Assembly (NCBI GenBank): GCA_024276825.1
Contig: JAJRWI010000010.1
Location: 128,001-192,000, forward strand
Direction: 5' to 3'
DNA: 64,000 bases
From: an archaeon
Lineage (GTDB): Archaea; Asgardarchaeota; Thorarchaeia; Thorarchaeales; Thorarchaeaceae
The first letter of the stretch is position 1. The number at the start of each line of letters is the position of its first letter. A program made the translations under genes and the position numbers. Under the pieces are notes generated by a model. The model had not been told where the DNA came from, did no database searches, and saw nothing but the letters and a program-made list of their open reading frames with translations. Below are positions 5,157 through 16,123 of this stretch, piece by piece.

Positions 5157-5179
5157 CCAATATTCAGAAAGATAAAAGC

Positions 5180-5205
5180 AGGTCTCTGGCAATTGTCAGA
5201 GACCT
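5180..5205. terminator. 26-bp near-perfect palindrome between convergent genes
   Basis: AGGTCTCTGGCAATTGTCAGAGACCT, one G-T pair. Confidence 0.55.
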
Positions 5206-5212
5206 AATTGTT

Positions 5213-5539
5213 CTATTTTATTACCAAGAGAATTGCACCGATAATGACGAGAATGCCTCCCAGCGAGCTTCCGAAGACATAAAGCAAAATACCCACGATC
5301 AGAACGACAAGCCACTTCTCTTTGAATTCAAGGGCCTTTATCTTTACAAACCCTGCATTCACTAATGCTATCAGTGCGAAGAGAATTGCTAGGGTTCCCA
5401 GTATTAGGTTGTCTAGACCCAGTGGGAATCCGGGCAGAATGCTATGACCCATATCAAGGATTGTTAAAATTCCCTCCAGTAATCCAAGAAGTCCACCCAG
5501 TAATATTAGCAAACTCCCAATTTTTTTCAAATCAGCCAT
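5213..5539 (-). CDS. Small ~4-TM membrane protein
   Basis: Hydrophobic Gly/Leu/Ile-rich helices. Confidence 0.75.
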   Translation of the reverse strand: MADLKKIGSLLILLGGLLGLLEGILTILDMGHSILPGFPLGLDNLILGTLAILFALIALVNAGFVKIKALEFKEKWLVVLIVGILLYVFGSSLGGILVIIGAILLVIK

Positions 5540-5630
5540 ATTTTCACCATCTTAGTTCATATTTGTTTTGATTGCTTTTGCAAGAATTGTGTGATTATGC
5601 CATCATTTATCTCATCGCAAAGTTCAGATA

Positions 5631-6317
5631 TTATTTGATAAATTGAATAATATTATTGATTATTAGTTGTAATGCTTCTAAGGACTTGCCAACATTGCCA
5701 TCCACTTCTAGACTGTGATCGGCATCTTGGACTCTGACATCCACGCCCTTGGTTGTTTGAACAATCTCATTGAGAGTCTGTTCGTCATAATGAGGATCAT
5801 TGGTGCCAATGATGAACAGAGATGTGGGCTTCTGTCGCTGAATCTGCTTGTACAATATTTCCTGCTTCAGGAGGGGAGTCAGCCAGATGAATTTCTGTTC
5901 ATTAATTCTCGACTTGCTTTCGGTCAAGTGGCCGAGTGCGAGCGTACCAATTGATTTTCCAACAAGCACATCGATATGAATACCAGCGTCAACAGCAGCC
6001 GCATAAATGTTTTCGGCTTCTGAATAAATCACATTGCGACGTTTGTCCCAATTCATCTCAAGAAACTCTGCCCAATCAGAGTAATTGGTTTCAGCAGCAA
6101 GCACGTTATAGCCAAGCTGGATAAGAGCTTTGGTCGTGTAATAAAGCAAAGGCATTCTGCAGTTGTAAGCAAGACCAGGAAAAACAATTGCAGTTTGGGC
6201 GGTTACTCGCTTCTGGCGATAAAGAGTGTTTGATATAGGCCGGTCATTATAACCCCTAATGTCAATAGACGAGTATGTGAAACACATAGTAATCACAGAG
6301 TCTATCATAAGGCTCAT
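5631..6317 (-). CDS. Alpha/beta hydrolase
   Basis: GKSIG nucleophile elbow, GTND, DADHSL catalytic triad pattern. Confidence 0.8.
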   Translation of the reverse strand: MSLMIDSVITMCFTYSSIDIRGYNDRPISNTLYRQKRVTAQTAIVFPGLAYNCRMPLLYYTTKALIQLGYNVLAAETNYSDWAEFLEMNWDKRRNVIYSEAENIYAAAVDAGIHIDVLVGKSIGTLALGHLTESKSRINEQKFIWLTPLLKQEILYKQIQRQKPTSLFIIGTNDPHYDEQTLNEIVQTTKGVDVRVQDADHSLEVDGNVGKSLEALQLIINNIIQFIK

Positions 6318-6423
6318 GAATTAAAGATTGTCAGTCAAGCGAACATTTATTATGCAACAAAAGCGAGAATGTATCAAACAATAAGGAGGTAATAATGTAT
6401 GGCAAAAGATTTCAGGTGGGATC

Positions 6424-6657: not shown

Positions 6658-6787
6658 TCCGGCAAAGGAAGCACATGTCTGGAAGCCCCAGAGATGGCTT
6701 CCACCATATTGATTAGGATGACCTCTCCAAAACGCTCATAACCCACAGCCATCCCAAGGGATGCGTCATAAGAGAGAGGACATTACC

Positions 6788-8146
6788 ATGAACTTCTACA
6801 CTAATGCGGGTGTTGAACCAATAGGAGAGCTGAAAAGAACGCACTTCACTTCTGAGATTACACCTGAGATTGTAGGCAAAAAGGTCACTCTATTCGGATG
6901 GGTTCACATACTCAGGGACAAGGGAAAGATCAAGTTCTTGATACTGCGTGATGAACATGGAACAGTTCAGGTGACAATACCGCAGAAAAAAGTCACAGAG
7001 GTAGTGTTTAGTACTTCAGCCAAATTGAAACCCGAATATGCAATTGCTGTGACTGGTAAGGTTGTAGAGGCCAAGCAAGTCGCCAGTGGCGTCGAGATCA
7101 TCCCCACGATGATCAGAATAATCAATACTGCTGAGAGACTTCCAATTGATGTTGTTGAGGGCAAAGTGGACATTGATCTTGACACACGACTCAATCATAG
7201 GATATTGGACCTTCGCAAGCCAACAATCAATGCAATATTCAGGATTCAACACTCACTGGTCAGATTTGCAAGAGAGTTTCTTGAGAACAGAGATTTCGTG
7301 GAGATTCACACCCCCAAGATTGTGGCGGAGGCCACTGAGGGCGGTGCTAATCTGTTTGAGATAAAATACTTTGAGCGTCGTGCATTTCTGGCCCAGAGCC
7401 CGCAGTTCTACAAACAGCTGATGCTTCTTGCTGGATTTGGAAGAGTCTTTGAAATAGGACCAGTGTTTCGGGCTGAGAAACACAACACCAGACGACACAT
7501 CAATGAGTATACATCATTTGACTTTGAGATGGCATGGATTAACAGTGTAGAAGATGTAATGGACATGGAAGAACGAATGTTACATCACGCATTCAAAAAG
7601 ACCCGCGAGGCCGCTGCCACCGAGTTGGAGTTATTGGGAGTTGATCTGAAGGTGCCGAAGGTGCCTTTTAAGAGGATAAAGTATGCAGAGGTCATAGACC
7701 TTCTTAACGATGCAGGAAAAGAGATCACTATTCATGATGACCTCGACCCCGAGTCAGAGCGACTGCTCGCCGAGATATTCAATGAGAAGTTCAAGTCAGA
7801 CCTCGTCTTTATAACACACTACCCGCTTGAATTGCGTCCAGCATACACGATGCCAAGCCTGACGGAACAGGGAATGACAGAGAGTTTTGATCTGACTTAC
7901 AAGGGCATGGAGATCACAACAGGTGGTCAGAGAATTCATCTCTATGACTTACTTGTCGATCGCTTTAAAGCAAAGGGGTTCAATCCCGATGACTTTGGGT
8001 TTTATCTTAATCCGTTCAAATATGGAGCTCCCCCACATGGGGGTCTCGGGCTGGGTGTCGAGCGATTGACTATGCAACTTCTTGGAATAGAGAATATTCG
8101 AGAGGCCACACTTTTGCCAAGAGACCGCGACAGACTCACACCATAA
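6788..8146 (+). CDS. aspS: Aspartate--tRNA ligase, archaeal type
   Basis: OB fold [48 protein letters not shown]; start at 6788 follows GAGAGGA. Confidence 0.95.
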
Positions 8147-8183: not shown

Positions 8184-8987
8184 ATGGGAGTCTTAACATA
8201 TCTTCTCAGTGAGAGGAAGGAACACCAAAGGGAAGAACCGATGTACCTGCGAGTCCAATCAGAACTCTACGCATCAATAGCCACACTTGACAGACTGAAG
8301 AAGATGTATAATGTGGGGGTAGTTGACCCAAGGTCTTTTCAGCGAGAGTCTGAGGCCCTGATGATGGACGTGCAGGAACGTATTTCTGAGATGCGCAGGA
8401 TGGGAGTGGATTTCGGATCATTTCTCATGAATGAACGGATCATGGATGCCTTTCCTGATGCTGTGGAGATGCTTGGTATTCGTGGACCCAGTCAGACGCC
8501 TATTCAGAGAGGAATGACCAGAGAAGAGTATTTTGACTATCTGGGGCTCGCAGTCCTTGATGTCGCCACTGCAAATGCCTCCAAGGGACTGATGAGCCTT
8601 GCTGACATGATTGTTGAGGTCTCAAAGCTGTTGCCCCACCTTAAACCAATAAATTACAACGATGTGATAGAGGCAGTTAATATAGTTTCACACCATGGAC
8701 TGATTCCTGGAATAAGAACACTGCAGTGTGGTGTAAAGGTTGTTGAACTGAGACCTCTAGAACTTCGTGGCGATCAGGCAGAGGTTGTCAACCTAGCTGC
8801 GACAAAGGGCTATACAACAGTTGAGGAAGTGATGATAGCACTCAACTGGTCGAAGGATCATGCCACTCAGGTATTGAACAGCCTTGTTGATGCAGGGATG
8901 GCTGTTGCAGATAAGAAGTACTCTACAGGCTTCAAGTATTGGTTCCCTGGCCTTCGAGCAAGAGATAATTCAGACAGAGAAGACTGA
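8184..8987 (+). CDS. ESCRT-I Vps28 N-terminal-like domain fused to ESCRT-II Vps22/36 (EAP30) winged helices; probable start 8241
   Basis: SELYASIATLDRLKKMYNVGVVDPRSFQRESEALM resembles the Vps28 N-terminal hairpin. EEYFDYLGLAVLDV...GLMSL...PLELRGDQAEVVNLA..KGYTT...W....A.QVL..LV.AGMA...YWFPGL resembles Vps22. Confidence 0.8.
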   Translation: MGVLTYLLSERKEHQREEPMYLRVQSELYASIATLDRLKKMYNVGVVDPRSFQRESEALMMDVQERISEMRRMGVDFGSFLMNERIMDAFPDAVEMLGIRGPSQTPIQRGMTREEYFDYLGLAVLDVATANASKGLMSLADMIVEVSKLLPHLKPINYNDVIEAVNIVSHHGLIPGIRTLQCGVKVVELRPLELRGDQAEVVNLAATKGYTTVEEVMIALNWSKDHATQVLNSLVDAGMAVADKKYSTGFKYWFPGLRARDNSDRED

Positions 8988-8988
8988 T

Positions 8989-9666
8989 TCAGACCTTAAG
9001 TCGGATTGCACCCTTCTTCTTATCAACCCATACAGCAAGCTTGTTCTCGACAAGTATGCCAAGGATTTCAAGGAGGTCCTTCTCTGGAAGTGTCGAGAAC
9101 GCAAGCTTGTTGTTCTGTATCACTAGTGACTTCACATCGATGCGAGTGCTACCAGTTTTAAGTGCCCAGCGATATACAATCTGTGCCCATTCCTCAAGGG
9201 GTCTCCAGTGAATCCTCAGTTGCTTTCTATGAGTGCCAATCCATTCTGCCAGCCCTTTGTCGACAAGAATATCTGCTATAATGTTGAACGCCCTAGCCTT
9301 GTCCAAGATCTCTCTGAAGGGTCTGGTTGTGATGAACAGAGACACTGATACAACATGCATATTCATATATTCGGCCCATTCAAGAAGGAAGTCTGCCCAT
9401 TCTTCTGCCCACAATGGTACTGCTTCTTTAGACTCTGGAACATAATACATCCAATGTGCCTGTGAGCTGTCACCCCAAGAGGGTAGAAACGGTCCTAATG
9501 ATGGCTCCTCTTCCATCTTAGATTGTGACTCGTGAACATCATGAACTGCTGCTTGTGCAACCTGAGTTTCATTGATTTCTTCAGTCCTAGCAGTGGGGAG
9601 CGTTCTTGGTCGTTCTGGTTTTGGTTTCGCCTTTGCGCGTCGGCTAATTTTCTCATGAACACTCAT
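8989..9666 (-). CDS. vps25: ESCRT-II Vps25-like protein
   Basis: WAEEWADFLLEW, LVDKGLAEW, IHWRPLEEWAQIVYRWA, LPEKDLLEILGILVENKLA tandem winged helices; ESCRT context. Confidence 0.85.
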   Translation of the reverse strand: MSVHEKISRRAKAKPKPERPRTLPTARTEEINETQVAQAAVHDVHESQSKMEEEPSLGPFLPSWGDSSQAHWMYYVPESKEAVPLWAEEWADFLLEWAEYMNMHVVSVSLFITTRPFREILDKARAFNIIADILVDKGLAEWIGTHRKQLRIHWRPLEEWAQIVYRWALKTGSTRIDVKSLVIQNNKLAFSTLPEKDLLEILGILVENKLAVWVDKKKGAIRLKV

Positions 9667-9669
9667 TGG

Positions 9670-10854
9670 TCATGGGCCCTCCATCCATTGGTGATATCTT
9701 CGGACATCATCAGGAGATGCCATAGGGACTATCTTCTTGATTGCCCGTAGGAAGTCGTTCATACTCACAGGACGGACCTTCATCTCACCTTCAGTGCTGC
9801 TCTGACCCATTACTTCTCTTATTGGCCCCATTGCAGCTTCTCGGCAGACTATGCTCAGATCTCTTCCACTATACCATTCAGTTAGTCTGGCCAGTTCGGC
9901 ATAATCAACATCATCAGCGATTTCAACATCAGTCATATGTATACGCAGAATCTCAGCCCTCGCATTCTCATTTGGTAGGGGAACATAGATCTTTCTCTCA
10001 AATCTAGATAGTAATGCAAAATCAATCTCCCATGGAAGGTTTGTTGCTGCCACAAGGGTCACTCGTTCATTAGGAGAACTGTTTAGACCTTGTAGCTCAG
10101 TCAGCAGTTGAGTCTTCATGCGGCGCTCTCCGCCAACATCATCATTGGACCGTGTATTGCCGATGGAGTCAATCTCATCAATGAATATTATGGATGGCTG
10201 GTGTTTGCGGGCGAGCTCGAATAGTTTCATAACGAGACGTTCCGACTCACCAAGCCATTTACTGACTATATTGCCCGCTGAAACATTGAAGAATGTCGCA
10301 TTGATCTCTGATGCCACAGCTTTGACTAACAAGGTCTTTCCGGTACCGGCAGGACCATACAAGAGAATTCCACGCCATGGCTGACGGGCCTTCCCCTTGA
10401 ATAACTCGGGGTGTTTAATTGGAAAGACTATTGCCTCATAGATCGCCTGCTTGGCATCATCGAGCCCTGCGACCTCAGACATCTTGACTCCAGGACGTTC
10501 TCTTATGATTGTGTCTGCGACCATCTCGCTGAGAATTCTATCATCAGAGTCAACAGGAGATGAGTCTTGTTGTGTTGAGTCGGATTGTGACGGCAGAGCA
10601 CTGACCGAAGACTCATTATCCGTGGCAGGTCTTCTGGTTATAGCAATCACCCGCTCAACACATTCCTGTGCCCTATCATAGTATAATTGCCTGACTTTGG
10701 GTAGTGTTGAAACCCGGTAGAGTTTTAGCAGGACCTTGCTAGCGCTGATGTAGAGTCTGCAGGCCTCCTTTCTCAGACCCCTTCTATCAAGATCAATTGC
10801 TTTCTGCAGCAGGTCACGTAGACCTTCTTCTGCGTAATTATTAGGTCCTGCCAT
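9670..10854 (-). CDS. vps4: Vps4-like MIT-AAA ATPase
   Basis: N-terminal MIT helices; PWRGILLYGPAGTGKT, SKWLGESE, IFIDEID, ATNLPW. Confidence 0.92.
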   Translation of the reverse strand: MAGPNNYAEEGLRDLLQKAIDLDRRGLRKEACRLYISASKVLLKLYRVSTLPKVRQLYYDRAQECVERVIAITRRPATDNESSVSALPSQSDSTQQDSSPVDSDDRILSEMVADTIIRERPGVKMSEVAGLDDAKQAIYEAIVFPIKHPELFKGKARQPWRGILLYGPAGTGKTLLVKAVASEINATFFNVSAGNIVSKWLGESERLVMKLFELARKHQPSIIFIDEIDSIGNTRSNDDVGGERRMKTQLLTELQGLNSSPNERVTLVAATNLPWEIDFALLSRFERKIYVPLPNENARAEILRIHMTDVEIADDVDYAELARLTEWYSGRDLSIVCREAAMGPIREVMGQSSTEGEMKVRPVSMNDFLRAIKKIVPMASPDDVRRYHQWMEGP

Positions 10855-11013
10855 TTGAGCTCATACTCATCTCTATCATGCCTAATATTAACCTCTGTAA
10901 CACGAAACCACTAGAATGGCGGCCGCTCCTCATAATGCTTCATGTAATAACCTCATCTATCTTTATGGATCTATCAATGTGATACTCAGGTTTAAACAAT
11001 AGACAGAGAGATT

Positions 11014-11643
11014 ATGCTTGGAACGGTGAGACTCTTGGGCACAATACGCAAGGCCTTTATCTGGGGAAGAAGCAAGCCGAATATCAGTGAGATAAAGAGT
11101 AGATTAAGAATTCTAGTCAGACAGCTTCAAAGGCAAAAGATGAAGCTTGATAATGAGATCTCTGCGATCAAGGCATGTGCTGTGCGTGCCCGCAAGAACG
11201 GTGATATGGAGGCCTTCAGATCATATGCAGAAGAGCTTGTAAGGTTCAGACATCTGGCACTTTCAGTTGACAAATCTAGGCTATATCTGTTAAAGATTCT
11301 CAATCATATCCAGCAGGCTCAGACAACCGCAAAGACCTCATTAGTAATGGGAGAAGTTGGCAAAATACTTGGGATCCTTGGCGATGTGACTGATGTGTCA
11401 AGAGTTGTGGCAAATGTCGATGAGATTGCACGTAGGCTTGAGGAATTTGAGATAGAGAGGGGTATTGCAAGCACATCAATAGACTCGGCTACGAGCAGTA
11501 TTAGGCCAGATGAAGTAGCACGGACGATGGGTGAGATAGAGGCAATTGCAGGCATGTCGTCCGATAAGAGAATGTCAGCTGGTTCAGAAGCCGATTCACT
11601 TGAGGCCACAATAAGAGCTCTTGAACAAGAGCTCGATGTCTAG
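11014..11643 (+). CDS. ESCRT-III (Snf7-fold, Vps2/24/46-like)
   Basis: Basic N-terminal helical hairpin (A..ARKNGDMEAFRSYAEELVR), acidic C-terminal half, terminal MIM1-like DSLEATIRALEQEL; divergent from vps4. Confidence 0.85.
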   Translation: MLGTVRLLGTIRKAFIWGRSKPNISEIKSRLRILVRQLQRQKMKLDNEISAIKACAVRARKNGDMEAFRSYAEELVRFRHLALSVDKSRLYLLKILNHIQQAQTTAKTSLVMGEVGKILGILGDVTDVSRVVANVDEIARRLEEFEIERGIASTSIDSATSSIRPDEVARTMGEIEAIAGMSSDKRMSAGSEADSLEATIRALEQELDV

Positions 11644-11663
11644 AGATGAGTTATTGGTGATCT

Positions 11664-13232
11664 TTACCAATTGGAGTATTGGCCATGGGCAGATGCCCCA
11701 TTAATCTGATGACGAAGTTCGTAGAGTTCTCTCATGAGAATCCTGTGCCTTCTGGTGAAGTCTTCAGGAACAAGACGCCCCTCTCTGAACATGCGAACTG
11801 TGTCATCCAGTGCTATCTCAATCTCTGAGAGTTTACGTTGAATCTCTTCAATTCTATTGCTATCGTGATTGAGGTTTCCCATCATGAATCGATCAGAGCC
11901 AGTGGCAAATGTTCTGTCCAACTCCTGTTTGTAGGAGTATGGCGAGTAATCCTGTTGGTTATGCTCCATGAATGGACTTGTGGAATAATGTGGACCATCA
12001 AACATTACAGGATTTGGCGGTGGATATGAATGAGGGGATATTGTCTGAAACCGACCAGATAGTAGAGCATGAACAAGACTATCAATCTTGATTCGAACAT
12101 CCTCAATGTTAACGCTCTTCTGTTCGAGCTTACGCACCCGCTGAAGGTCCGTTTGAACATATCTACTAAAATTGCGTGCGATCTCGACAAAATCAGGCAT
12201 GACTTTCATTGTCTGCTCACTGCAGAGAATCTTGATCATGCCTTGTTTGAACCTCATCACTATGCGTTTTCTGAATCGTCCGTCTTCCTCAAATGATTTG
12301 AAGTATTGAAGTGGAAACTCGAACACAATATCGGTCTTCTTACGTACTCGGCCTGTTTCAGCTATGAATACCAGTCTTCGATTTGTGACGTATAGAGTGC
12401 CAAGTGCTTTATCATTCTTTAGAAAATCACTTCCAACAATGCGTATGTCTGAGAATGCACATACCGGGAGTTCGTTGACTGAGAGCTCGGCATACTCGTA
12501 AAATCCACAGAACTGATTGCGATAATAGTTCAGGCCATCAAGCTGGCGATCGATTTCTGCAATGACCTTTTGAATTGGTTCGATTGTGTCATTAATTGCT
12601 TTCTTGTACTGCTTGCATATCTCACTGACTCTATGAGCCACACCCTCGATGAATGGAAATTGAGAGGGCACCCATTGATTATGATTCATTAACCCCTTAG
12701 TTTCAGCAGCAAGGCGTTTTGCAATGATCTCGACCTGATTACTTATCCTGTTCTTGGCAGCAACAATATTCTCATGGCACTCCTCAATCTTGTCCTCCAG
12801 CCATTTATAGTGCAGAAAGCTTGACATCCTAAGAGAAACCAAGAGCTGCTTTGCAGAGTGAATCCGATTACTTGTTTCACGCAATTTGGTATGACCATAG
12901 TGAATCTCCATGATTGCATGACGCATCTCTTGTGCAAGGTCACGTCGTTTCTCTTCAATCAGTACTATACGGACTGAATGGCAGTTGGGGCAGATGTTGT
13001 CAATACGTTTGCCAGTACTAAGGCGATCTGACCCACACTCGGGGCATGATTCGAAGGTTTCGCCTGGCTCTGGGACTCCTAGGGAATGGTGGCAATTAGT
13101 GCACAAATAATACTCACTGTTTCGCGACTCCAGACAATCCACGCAGAGTATAGTTCCGCAGTCTTCACACATATGTGTGGCCCGGTTCTTATCACATATG
13201 CTGCATCGGGATGAGTTTGGATCAGCTGTCAT
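11664..13232 (-). CDS. B-box/Zn-ribbon, coiled-coil, GRAM/PH-like and C-terminal steadiness-box (Vps23/37-like) protein
   Basis: CSICDKNRATHMCEDCGTILCVDC; further CxxC pairs; GTLYVTNRRLVF; IEIALDDTVRMFREGRLVPEDFTRRHRILMRELYELR. Confidence 0.75.
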   Translation of the reverse strand: MTADPNSSRCSICDKNRATHMCEDCGTILCVDCLESRNSEYYLCTNCHHSLGVPEPGETFESCPECGSDRLSTGKRIDNICPNCHSVRIVLIEEKRRDLAQEMRHAIMEIHYGHTKLRETSNRIHSAKQLLVSLRMSSFLHYKWLEDKIEECHENIVAAKNRISNQVEIIAKRLAAETKGLMNHNQWVPSQFPFIEGVAHRVSEICKQYKKAINDTIEPIQKVIAEIDRQLDGLNYYRNQFCGFYEYAELSVNELPVCAFSDIRIVGSDFLKNDKALGTLYVTNRRLVFIAETGRVRKKTDIVFEFPLQYFKSFEEDGRFRKRIVMRFKQGMIKILCSEQTMKVMPDFVEIARNFSRYVQTDLQRVRKLEQKSVNIEDVRIKIDSLVHALLSGRFQTISPHSYPPPNPVMFDGPHYSTSPFMEHNQQDYSPYSYKQELDRTFATGSDRFMMGNLNHDSNRIEEIQRKLSEIEIALDDTVRMFREGRLVPEDFTRRHRILMRELYELRHQINGASAHGQYSNW

Positions 13233-13386: not shown

Positions 13387-14772
13387 ATGGAAGATCTTAC
13401 ACACGCTGCAATTGAAGCTGCGTTGAAAGTCGGAGTTAGTTTTGTTGACATTCGAATTGAAAACACTGAGTCTACGATCATTGAAATAAGTGATGGGGTG
13501 ACTAAACAGTCAATTGAGTCAAGACTCAAGGGTGCCGGGATTCGAGCCTTTGTTGATGGAGCATGGGCGTTTGCACAGACCACAGACCTGACAATTGAGG
13601 GGATGCGAGCAACTGGGGAGTCTGTTGCAAAGCTTGCAATGGCCACACGAAAACAAGTCCGTGAGAAGTTCGATATTGATGGACCAACATTCAAGGATAA
13701 GGTGCATTTTAGAGTCAGAAAGCATCTGAAGGATGTGCCTTTTGATGACAAGATTGCATTTGCAATGATGATAGACAAGCAGGCACGCGAATATGACAGT
13801 AGAATAGTGAACACACGGACAATCTATGGGGACACATGGACCGAGTTATACATTGCTAATTCGTTGGGCACATCAATCTATATCGAAAACTCACTACCAA
13901 GAATCATCTCGTTCACCACAGCCAAGGATGGAACGAACAGACAAAGAGGATACAGGTCTGTGGGGGTGAGAGGAGGATTTGAGGAGATGGAGAGTGAAAA
14001 GCCCCAGCATATTGGAGAGGAGTCTGCCAAACTTGTGATCAGTCTTCTAGACTCAATAGCTGTGAAGGGCGGTACCTATGATGTCATTATGGATCCTGTT
14101 TTCAATGGCGTCATGGTTCATGAGGCCTTCGGTCATGCATGTGAGGCGGACAACTGGCCAGCCCATACAACAGTTTTGGAGGATAAGATTGGAGAACAGG
14201 TCGGTCCTGAAGAGATGAACCTGAGCGATGACCCCACACTCAAAGGGGAACGTGGCTCATTCGAGTATGATTGGGAGGGGACAAAAACAAGAAAACGCAT
14301 ACTCGTCAAAGACGGGGTCTTGAACGAACTCTTGCATAGTCTAGAAACATCATCAAGGTTGGGCATGGAGCCAAACGGTGCAGCCAGATGTCAGTCTTTC
14401 AAGTTTCCGCCAATACCAAGAATGAGTAACACCTTCATGGAGCCTGGCGACTGGGATGTTGATGAGATGATTCAAGACATGAAAAATGGAATACTGTTAT
14501 GTGACTTTAATTATGGCTATACGGAGCCTTCAAAGGGACAGTTTATGTTTCAGGCAAACTACGGATATCTGATAGAGAATGGCGAGAAGACAAGGATGGT
14601 GAGAGATGTTTCACTCGCAGGTCAGATTCTTGAGGTGCTGCCAAAAATCGATGCAATTGGAAATGACTTCCAGATGGACCCTGGGACCTGTGGCAAGTCG
14701 GGACAAGGAGTACCAGACATGACAGGAGGGCCACATGCAAGGATAAGAAATGTACCAGTAGGAGGAATGTGA
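13387..14772 (+). CDS. tldD: TldD metalloprotease subunit
   Basis: HEAFGHACEAD, PIPRMSNT, GTCGKSGQ. Confidence 0.92.
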   Translation: MEDLTHAAIEAALKVGVSFVDIRIENTESTIIEISDGVTKQSIESRLKGAGIRAFVDGAWAFAQTTDLTIEGMRATGESVAKLAMATRKQVREKFDIDGPTFKDKVHFRVRKHLKDVPFDDKIAFAMMIDKQAREYDSRIVNTRTIYGDTWTELYIANSLGTSIYIENSLPRIISFTTAKDGTNRQRGYRSVGVRGGFEEMESEKPQHIGEESAKLVISLLDSIAVKGGTYDVIMDPVFNGVMVHEAFGHACEADNWPAHTTVLEDKIGEQVGPEEMNLSDDPTLKGERGSFEYDWEGTKTRKRILVKDGVLNELLHSLETSSRLGMEPNGAARCQSFKFPPIPRMSNTFMEPGDWDVDEMIQDMKNGILLCDFNYGYTEPSKGQFMFQANYGYLIENGEKTRMVRDVSLAGQILEVLPKIDAIGNDFQMDPGTCGKSGQGVPDMTGGPHARIRNVPVGGM

Positions 14773-14773
14773 A

Positions 14774-16123
14774 ATGGAGAATCATCTACTTGAATTAGCC
14801 AACAAGGCACTTAGCACCGCAGAGAAACTTGGTGCACAGCAGGCGGAAGTGTATATTGCATTATCCCGTTCTTTCTCAATAGAGGTTGAAAACAGTTCTA
14901 TTAAAAGCGCCAGCGAAATTAGGGACGGAGGTTGTGGAATTCGCTCAATCATTGATAAAAAGATCGGGTTCGCTTTTGTCACAAATCTGAATGAGAAGGA
15001 CATTCTTGAGATGGCAGAGCGCTCAGTAAGCATTGCAAAATCATCTGTGGCTGACCCAAATTTTGTCACACTACCAAGTGCAAGCTCAAGATATCCCAGT
15101 GTCAAGGGCATTTTTGATCCTGCTATTGATAATATTGAATCGGAAGCAGCAACCAATCTCATTATCCGCACAGTTGAGGCAACAAAGAATGCCACCAAAG
15201 ACTTGAAGACCGCAGTTGAAGCCTCAATTTCAACAAGCACTTCAACAAGGGCGATAGTAAATTCTCTTGGAGTAGAGGGAATCCAGAAGGCCACATCCAT
15301 TGTGCTCTTCAGTTATCCCACAATCAAGACAGACAGCGATCAGAACTCCAGCTTCGAGTTCCAGGTGTCAAGACAATTGAAGACAATAGACCCTGAATGG
15401 GTTGGGACAAACGCTGGAAAGAATGCTGTTGCAAATCTTGGCGGAAATACAATAGAGGGTGGTGACTTGCCAATCATTCTCACACCACTCGCTGTCAGTG
15501 TTGTTCTCGGTTCAGGATTCGGAGGAGCCATTAATGCAGAAGAGGTTCAGCAAGGCCGGTCATATATTTCAGATGCACTTGGCGAAGAGATTGCCAGTCC
15601 CGCATTGCATATCGTTGATGATGGTCTAAGAGAGGGAGGAGTTGGTTCGAGAAACTTTGATGCTGAAGGATTTCCATCGAGAACCACAGAAGTCCTAGAA
15701 GATGGTATATTGAAGAGCTTGCTGCATAATTCATATACTGCCAACAAGGATAAGGTGGAGAACACTGGAAACGCCAGCAGACCGTCATATTCAGGACTGC
15801 CTTCGATATCAACCACAAATATGGTGATAAAGCCAGGCAAGGGGTCACTCGAAGACCTTGTTTCTGAGATTGACAAGGGAGTGCTTGTCAAAAACACATG
15901 GGACCGACCGAACATGACCACTGGTGATCTGAGTGCACTGGTTGCGGAGGGATTCTACATTGAGAATGGCTCGATAGCATTCCCTGTCAAGAGCACGCTT
16001 ATCGGAATAAACATGCGTGATGTTCTCAAGCGCGTCAGTATTGTAGGTGAGGATGTGAGAGTCACAAGCAGCGTAGTATCGCCATCAATTGTGCTAGAAT
16101 CAGCCAGAGTCACTTCGGGCTGA
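14774..16123 (+). CDS. pmbA: TldE/PmbA subunit
   Basis: FDAEG, TGNASR, no HExxH, adjacent to tldD. Confidence 0.9.
   Translation: MENHLLELANKALSTAEKLGAQQAEVYIALSRSFSIEVENSSIKSASEIRDGGCGIRSIIDKKIGFAFVTNLNEKDILEMAERSVSIAKSSVADPNFVTLPSASSRYPSVKGIFDPAIDNIESEAATNLIIRTVEATKNATKDLKTAVEASISTSTSTRAIVNSLGVEGIQKATSIVLFSYPTIKTDSDQNSSFEFQVSRQLKTIDPEWVGTNAGKNAVANLGGNTIEGGDLPIILTPLAVSVVLGSGFGGAINAEEVQQGRSYISDALGEEIASPALHIVDDGLREGGVGSRNFDAEGFPSRTTEVLEDGILKSLLHNSYTANKDKVENTGNASRPSYSGLPSISTTNMVIKPGKGSLEDLVSEIDKGVLVKNTWDRPNMTTGDLSALVAEGFYIENGSIAFPVKSTLIGINMRDVLKRVSIVGEDVRVTSSVVSPSIVLESARVTSG

Follow-up and report, generated by a model that had tools for sequence, protein, structure and literature searches.

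A 64,000-nucleotide stretch of a Thorarchaeaceae genome (assembly GCA_024276825.1, contig JAJRWI010000010.1, positions 128,001 to 192,000; hereafter the window, whose whole-length numbering is used throughout) contains five consecutive genes, at 8184-13232, for components of the ESCRT membrane-remodelling machinery. We conclude that, very probably, this Thorarchaeota-type Asgard archaeon has its one canonical ESCRT locus here and runs a variant of the Asgard pathway that does not depend on ubiquitin. The cluster type is already known from the published five-gene Thorarchaeota ESCRT cluster. Its members encode a Vps28-N/Vps22 fusion, Vps25, Vps4, an ESCRT-III protein of the Vps2/24/46 class (IIIA) and a putative Zn-ribbon adaptor, and a second ESCRT-III gene, of the Vps20/32/60 class (IIIB), lies elsewhere in the genome (G000 below).

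The five genes lie on strands + - - + - between aspS and tldD, with a 1-bp convergent gap at 8988 (fusion gene/vps25), a 20-bp convergent gap at 11644-11663 (IIIA/adaptor) and a 159-bp intergenic spacer at 10855-11013 between the divergent vps4 and IIIA genes. An initial annotation of the window had described this arrangement, and its coordinates match the open reading frame (ORF) list exactly. The gene identities that it proposed also hold up, by Pfam matches for four members and by alignment and modelling for the adaptor. Its view of the cluster as self-contained, and possibly as a second, specialised pathway, is not supported by the genome-wide comparisons below.

A single ESCRT locus in a genome without matches to the ubiquitin system

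The G000 assembly spans 2.94 Mb and is rated 98.3% complete. Vps4, EAP30/Vps22 and Vps25 are each single-copy in it: one gene encodes Vps4, one scores above the EAP30 cut-off, and Vps25 has a single match genome-wide. The other AAA matches are frames of 735, 741 and 406 amino acids (aa) at 41% identity, which from their lengths we read as Cdc48-type (the two longer frames) and PAN-type ATPases. A Pfam search recovered exactly two Snf7 genes, one in the window and one on contig C33; the 64,000 nucleotides of the window hold no second one. The genome-wide count is one ESCRT locus plus an unlinked IIIB gene, which leaves the proposed second pathway without a first. A weak second EAP30 match (C33:20902-21051) was rejected as the winged helix of ribosomal protein S25e and not an ESCRT gene. 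The ORF behind it encodes 246 aa on the minus strand and has an N-terminal S25e domain at 42.5 bits (L155:3369-4109).

The absence of ubiquitin-system genes that the initial annotation reported for the window extends to the whole genome. G000 has no match to PF00240 (ubiquitin), PF00179 (UQ_con) or PF05743 (UEV, searched without a positive control), and G025, a genome of the same order, has none to PF00240 or PF00179. As a positive control, ubiquitin and UQ_con were found in four of four other Asgard genomes, in some of them beside the ESCRT cluster. The marks of a ubiquitin-coupled ESCRT system, namely ubiquitin and an E2 or UEV-Vps23 in genome or cluster, were thus not found for this locus.

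Two ESCRT-III classes, one clustered and one dispersed

The clustered ESCRT-III gene (11014-11643, plus strand, 209 aa) has a Snf7 core at residues 28-177 (Pfam, 42 bits; cut-off 27.3). In a single-sequence search of the PDB, the ESCRT-III chains matched were CHMP1B, CHMP1A, CHMP2A and archaeal CdvB, with none of the Snf7 class. A profile built from 16 family orthologues matched CHMP1B best (E = 1.1e-13), followed by CHMP1A, CHMP2A and CHMP3 (1e-7), with Heimdall IIIB at just 0.0055 and no Snf7/CHMP4 chain at E <= 0.1. IIIA is thus closer to CHMP1/2/3 than to Snf7/Vps20/CHMP4/6. A maximum-likelihood tree of 66 Asgard ESCRT-III proteins, taken only from genomes with fetched loci and after removal of one 117-aa fragment, splits 33/33 with a support of 99 in the SH-like approximate likelihood ratio test (SH-aLRT). 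The window gene falls in the IIIA half and not with the Vps20/32/60 class; all 21 cluster-linked family genes (21/21) stand on one side of the split and all 21 dispersed family genes (21/21) on the other.

Most of the 33 IIIA-clade sequences have at their extreme C-terminus a Leu/Ile-spaced helix of the form LExxI(K/R)xLExEL; the end of the window protein reads ...SLEATIRALEQELDV. By comparison with the eukaryotic MIM1 consensus, this tail is a MIM1-like amphipathic helix. Because the PDB and profile matches, the half of the tree and the C-terminal helix agree, we assign the clustered protein to the Vps2/24/46 class, in keeping with the class and the MIM1-like tail proposed in the initial annotation.

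The same annotation counted one ESCRT-III, which is correct for the window and incorrect for the genome. The second Snf7 gene (C33:67178-67828) is isolated among housekeeping genes for a HAD hydrolase, a thioredoxin-like protein, a DsbD-type membrane protein and an inositol monophosphatase. The best PDB matches of its product are Heimdallarchaeota AB_125 ESCRT-IIIB and yeast Snf7, and the IIIB family profile matches AB_125 ESCRT-IIIB at 2.4e-25, a 'Vps20/32/60-like protein' at 2.1e-12 and Snf7 at 2.4e-11. In IIIB proteins a Pro motif, which reads GVLPPL in most members of the family, precedes an acidic helix. The available parts of Lu 2020 describe Leu/Ile-rich MIM1-like motifs in Asgard Vps2/24/46 proteins and also report MIM2-like motifs; the IIIA helix and the IIIB Pro motif fit these two kinds.

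A layout fixed across the family and a relocated IIIB gene

Forty relatives were searched with each of six proteins and with Pfam Snf7, and 20 fetched same-family loci were mapped by blastp. The order and orientation in 19 of these 20 are those of the window, running aspS, fusion (+), vps25 (-), vps4 (-), IIIA (+), adaptor (-), tldD and the pmbA-like gene; protein identities between the mapped family loci and the window are about 37-70%. With G019, which was placed by coordinates, the layout is kept on one contig in 20 of 24 same-family genomes. G006 has the IIIA-adaptor-tldD-pmbA block inverted, and in G002, G007 and G024 the cluster is broken by contig ends. Among the mapped loci, aspS stands on the Vps22 side of the cluster in 20/20, the TldD/PmbA-like pair on the adaptor side in 19/20, and the divergent vps4/IIIA pair is retained in 19/20. 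Conservation in 20 of 24 genomes places the arrangement far beyond chance, and the synteny that the initial annotation had asked about is present in relatives. The mixed orientation is the fixed layout of this family, in which a vps25-vps4 unit is divergent from IIIA and two ESCRT-I/II scaffold genes are convergent at both ends.

IIIB is present in 23 of the 24 family relatives (it was not found in G002) and is near the cluster in none. Where both share a contig, in three genomes, they are 1.1 Mb, 320 kb and 280 kb apart; in 20 genomes IIIB is on another contig. Exactly two Snf7 matches occur in 23/24 same-family genomes. For comparison, 12 genomes of other Asgard families also have two Snf7 matches, which are adjacent in 7/12 and at most 10 kb apart in 11/12.

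G025, of the same order and another family, has three Snf7 genes: IIIA, an adjoining, long-branch divergent IIIB and a dispersed IIIB. These lie at 5171-6394 of locus L053 (contig C23) and 2818-3504 of L054 (C20). The dispersed copy groups with the dispersed IIIB genes of the window's family at an SH-aLRT of 89, which is not decisive. G025 looks like an intermediate state of IIIB relocation, and IIIB was likely duplicated or relocated before the window's family arose, with the linked copy then lost. The locus is the lineage's canonical cluster with IIIB moved away, an outcome that the initial annotation had itself set against its reading.

A fusion of the Vps28 N-terminus to Vps22

The first gene (8184-8987, plus strand, ORF of 267 aa) encodes a Vps28-N/Vps22 fusion without the Vps28 C-terminal domain. 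Pfam EAP30 matches residues 89-244 at 48.8 bits (cut-off 26.8) and covers only positions 58-219 of the 219 in the profile, whereas separate Asgard Vps22 proteins cover positions 1-218. The protein thus has the winged-helix pair but not a full EAP30 domain, the N-terminal helical part of Vps22 being replaced by a Vps28-type hairpin. Aligned by hhalign to six Asgard Vps28 N-termini, the fusion N-terminus (84 columns) reaches a probability of 98.8% and an E-value of 7.4e-17, which bears out the fusion suggested initially; those Asgard Vps28 proteins themselves score 46-61 bits on Pfam VPS28, and the fusion N-terminal part alone scores 13.1 bits (E = 0.083). Its two portions correspond to separate genes in other Asgard genomes: the N-terminal third matches an upstream gene for a full Vps28, and the remainder matches a full-length Vps22.

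The AlphaFold2 model of the fusion (predicted local distance difference test, pLDDT, 88.4) shows a hairpin of helices 2-24 and 30-53 followed by two winged-helix domains. Its top Foldseek matches, 3cuq_A (E = 1.8e-10) and 1u5t_A (1.6e-7), are the first chains of two solved ESCRT-II structures, and we take both to be EAP30/Vps22. No region corresponding to the Vps28 C-terminal four-helix-bundle domain is present in the modelled fusion protein (248-267 aa), and PF03997 (VPS28) has no match anywhere in G000. The true start is most likely Met20 (8241) and not 8184, as the column of Met20 is the ORF start in many relatives. The first 19 codons of the annotated ORF (8184-8243) have no counterpart in relatives.

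A further protein with a Vps22-like winged-helix pair occurs in the family. Its open frame, of about 775-930 aa, is present in 19 or more of the 24 same-family genomes, and the pair takes up the last ~150 residues and is 27-34% identical to that of the window. Three mapped examples of 775-781 aa are L152:805-3132 (G001), L153:2411-4756 (G011) and L154:623-2962 (G021), and in at least seven genomes the gene lies about 45-50 kb from IIIB. The protein matches no Pfam family above cut-off, and a tblastn search with the 775-aa protein of a relative found no orthologue in G000.

The adaptor and its predicted complex with the fusion

The adaptor gene (11664-13232, minus strand, 522 aa) has no Pfam match above cut-off. 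Twelve Cys, in six pairs, are invariant or near-invariant across 25 sequences, and the AlphaFold2 model (pLDDT 83.5) has strands at 20-91, helices at 92-246, a beta-sandwich at 256-336, disorder at 396-455 and a hairpin at 455-516. Alignment and model together describe a predicted ESCRT-I-like protein: three Zn ribbons come first, then a coiled-coil bundle of helices and a PH-like domain, and a Pro-rich disordered linker leads to the steadiness-box hairpin at the C-terminus. By architecture (three Zn ribbons, coiled coil, PH and C-terminal steadiness-box hairpin), it is a candidate member of the Znr_CC_PH_SB group. Foldseek searches with the whole model returned mainly DH-PH proteins with low template-modelling (TM) scores and the EAP45 GLUE domain 2hth_B (TM 0.55 target-normalised, E = 1e-3), a result that supports the PH fold only.

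The adaptor hairpin and the Vps28-N hairpin were predicted to form a complex with a score of 0.83, against 0.24 for the best of three controls; in a benchmark of this score, 116 of 157 solved complexes attained the mark, as did 2 of 215 mismatched pairs. Runs share at least 97% of contacts, and the partner pLDDT is at least 78. The contacts involve fusion residues 3-40 and adaptor residues 479-508, which are the most conserved motifs of both proteins. The prediction supports a model in which adaptor and fusion protein bind each other hairpin to hairpin; the initial annotation had proposed a link between the two.

Vps25, Vps4 and the flanks of the cluster

The vps25 gene (8989-9666, minus strand, 225 aa) encodes a tandem winged-helix protein with a Pfam ESCRT-II match (PF05871) at residues 88-174 (43.7 bits; cut-off 27) and a basic, poorly conserved N-terminal extension; its orthologues adjoin vps4 in relatives. 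Vps4 (9670-10854, minus strand, 394 aa) combines MIT, one AAA module and Vps4_C. Its Pfam scores are 142.5 bits for AAA, 47 for AAA_lid_3, 25.6 for Vps4_C (cut-off 21.3) and 28.4 for MIT (E = 1.7e-6), the last marginally below the cut-off of 30. A Vps4-based contig scan returned 80 loci, of which most, if not all, encode generic AAA ATPases of unrelated archaea and bacteria picked up through, for example, Walker-B patterns, and these were left unused.

The spacer between vps4 and IIIA has A/T-rich, TATA-like stretches about 20-30 bp ahead of both starts, and we presume from the sequence that it holds two divergent promoters. Base composition is uniform over the ESCRT region. On the Vps22 side the flank is aspS for aspartate-tRNA(Asn) ligase (6761-8146, plus strand; NCBIfam NF003483, 596.5 bits, cut-off 353). 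On the adaptor side lie TldD (13387-14772, plus strand) and a PmbA-like paralogue (14774-16123, plus strand), both with Pfam PmbA_TldD domains and with TldD and PmbA, respectively, as best NCBIfam matches below cut-off.

Comparison with published and other Asgard systems

The published sources are cited here as far as their available portions extend. For Thorarchaeota AB_25, supplementary file 4 of one study gives the tags ThorAB25_08990 (SB, for steadiness box), 09000 (ESCRT3A), 09020 (Vps25), 09030 (Vps22) and 07240 (ESCRT3B) (Hatano 2022, PMC9192718). As in the window, the SB adaptor, ESCRT3A, (Vps4), Vps25 and Vps22 occupy consecutive tags and the second ESCRT-III tag is distant. The AB_25 sequences share the motifs of the window's family: their 'Vps22' has a SEL(Y/F)ASIATLD hairpin at the N-terminus, their ESCRT3A has a LExxIKxLERELGV tail and their ESCRT3B contains LLEKEGVLPPL. 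The layout has therefore been documented before, distant IIIB included. The same study analysed 30 Thorarchaeota genomes and reported ubiquitin missing, as we find here, and used AB_25 proteins in two-hybrid tests, with Vps25-ESCRT-IIIB contacts; yeast two-hybrid data from that work point to a possible interaction of Vps28 with the steadiness-box proteins of Loki- and Thorarchaeota (Hatano 2022, PMC9192718). The window differs in coming from another genus-level lineage, with just 50-69% identity even to same-genus relatives. The published SB sequence begins at an internal Met within the first Zn ribbon. The two clusters show no difference in kind.

Two further studies describe related features in their available parts. 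Thorarchaeota accessions show Vps20/32/60 as non-adjacent and Vps4 and Vps2/24/46 as adjacent (Lu 2020). A steadiness-box-fused Vps22, 'Vps22#' (cog.002769), and 'Znr_CC_PH_SB' (cog.011556) have been described, along with a vps25 gene co-directed with vps4 (Makarova 2024, PMC10936438). The architectures of the window's fusion and adaptor match these descriptions, and it is by description that we equate them. In contrast to that account, the window's vps22 is co-directed with no vps23 or vps28 gene, because neither exists in the genome.

Compared with eukaryotes, the predicted hairpin-to-hairpin assembly of the window pair resembles the ESCRT-I headpiece formed by the steadiness boxes of Vps23, Vps28 and Vps37, and the winged-helix pair (through 3cuq_A and 1u5t_A) and the presence of Vps25 resemble ESCRT-II (Vps22/Vps36/Vps25). 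Unlike the eukaryotic complexes, the window system has no UEV, ubiquitin, Vps28 C-terminal domain or Vps36; its PH-like and Zn modules are on the ESCRT-I-like protein and not on Vps36, and ESCRT-I and ESCRT-II are covalently joined. Clusters of other Asgard archaea (for example G031, G026 and G036) share with the window a vps25-vps4 unit divergent from IIIA, Vps22 and, in several, Znr_CC_PH_SB. They differ in having IIIB directly after IIIA, Vps28 and Vps22 as two genes, a UEV/E2-like gene within the cluster, and ubiquitin.

Alternative readings of the cluster

The initial annotation saw a minimal chain, possibly a second, specialised ESCRT pathway, with a direct step from Vps25 to the clustered IIIA and its MIM1. 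IIIA, not IIIB, does stay beside vps25-vps4 in every family genome mapped, and the A/B labels in the available sequence file of Hatano 2022 (PMC9192718) are class-inconsistent, both of which would suit such a chain. We nonetheless regard it as highly improbable: with Vps4, the EAP30 gene and Vps25 each present once, there is nothing for it to be second to, and because a IIIB gene is present elsewhere in G000, as it is in 23/24 family relatives, a direct link from Vps25 to the MIM1-bearing subunit is not needed. The neighbouring positions of IIIA and IIIB in other Asgard genomes (the 7/12 adjacent and 11/12 close pairs above) also count against it, and their side-by-side placement in other Asgard clusters indicates that both belong to one system. 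It is likewise improbable that the cluster is chiefly a Cdv-like cell-division machine and not one for sorting or vesicle budding. ESCRT-III and Vps4 divide the cells of TACK archaea according to the available text of Makarova 2024 (PMC10936438), and the best NCBIfam matches are CdvC for Vps4 and CdvB for IIIA, both far below cut-off. Set against this, the ESCRT-III proteins split into two eukaryote-like classes, and the locus carries ESCRT-I/II-type adaptors with a PH-like domain, with no CdvA seen. Moreover, G000 has three tubulin/FtsZ-family genes (C35:80615-81094, C45:20274-20753 and C9:1158-1712; 170, 153.6 and 69.7 bits), so an FtsZ-type divisome is available and a purely divisional role becomes less likely; the third gene, a much weaker match, may be a divergent paralogue.

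Several points weigh against our preferred reading of a single canonical, ubiquitin-independent locus. The step from Vps25 to IIIB is carried over from other systems, and the published labels that bear on it are class-consistent for Thor and Heimdall, whereas for Loki the protein named 'ESCRT3B' is, by eye, similar to the gene that G032 has in the IIIA clade (Hatano 2022, PMC9192718, available sequences). With labels that are inconsistent in this way, the reported 'Vps25-ESCRT-IIIB' contact is not to be mapped blindly onto the two classes. Because solved ESCRT-I headpieces exist, the pass of the steadiness-box pair in complex prediction, for which we supplied the alignments ourselves, may partly mirror likeness to them instead of binding of its own. 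Lipid binding by the PH-like domain and the roles of the Zn ribbons are suggested by analogy only, and the ESCRT-III tree was made by a quick method from Asgard rows without eukaryotic ones. In a more radical version, which we judge unlikely, Znr_CC_PH_SB, Vps28N-Vps22 and Vps25 form a single ubiquitin-independent adaptor complex into which ESCRT-I and ESCRT-II have fused, and the family-wide removal of IIIB from the cluster is a real rewiring. Either IIIB would then be regulated and used separately from the adaptors, or IIIA would be contacted directly by Vps25 and the scaffold.

A proposed pathway and its implications

If the locus is a single canonical, ubiquitin-independent one, a pathway can be outlined. 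Znr_CC_PH_SB would use its PH-like domain and Zn ribbons to hold on to membrane, cargo or both, and its steadiness-box hairpin would pair with the Vps28-type hairpin of the Vps22 fusion, as modelled. ESCRT-I would in this way be joined to ESCRT-II with no need for ubiquitin, UEV-Vps23 or the C-terminal domain of Vps28. The winged helices of Vps22 would bind Vps25, as known for the family, and Vps25 would nucleate the unlinked IIIB (C33:67178-67828), a step suggested by eukaryotes and by the available two-hybrid data (Hatano 2022, PMC9192718). IIIB would recruit the clustered IIIA, after which Vps4 would be engaged at its MIT domain by two elements, the MIM1-like tail on IIIA and the Pro-rich, MIM2-like motif on IIIB, and would recycle the polymer. 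As far as the available text of Lu 2020 shows, MIM-MIT engagement of the Thorarchaeota set has been studied by docking and calorimetry. The first link of this pathway draws on modelling and the remaining links on family knowledge and the cited two-hybrid and calorimetry work.

The locus is nothing new in kind, and adds a further member to a published cluster type which shows how ESCRT operates in an Asgard lineage without ubiquitin. Points that may be useful are a family-wide fixed layout despite protein identities of only 40-70% and a IIIB gene that is always elsewhere, with what looks like a two-copy intermediate in a sister family. The predicted link from the Zn/PH adaptor to the Vps28N-Vps22 hairpin would offer a clean, testable interface for reconstitution.

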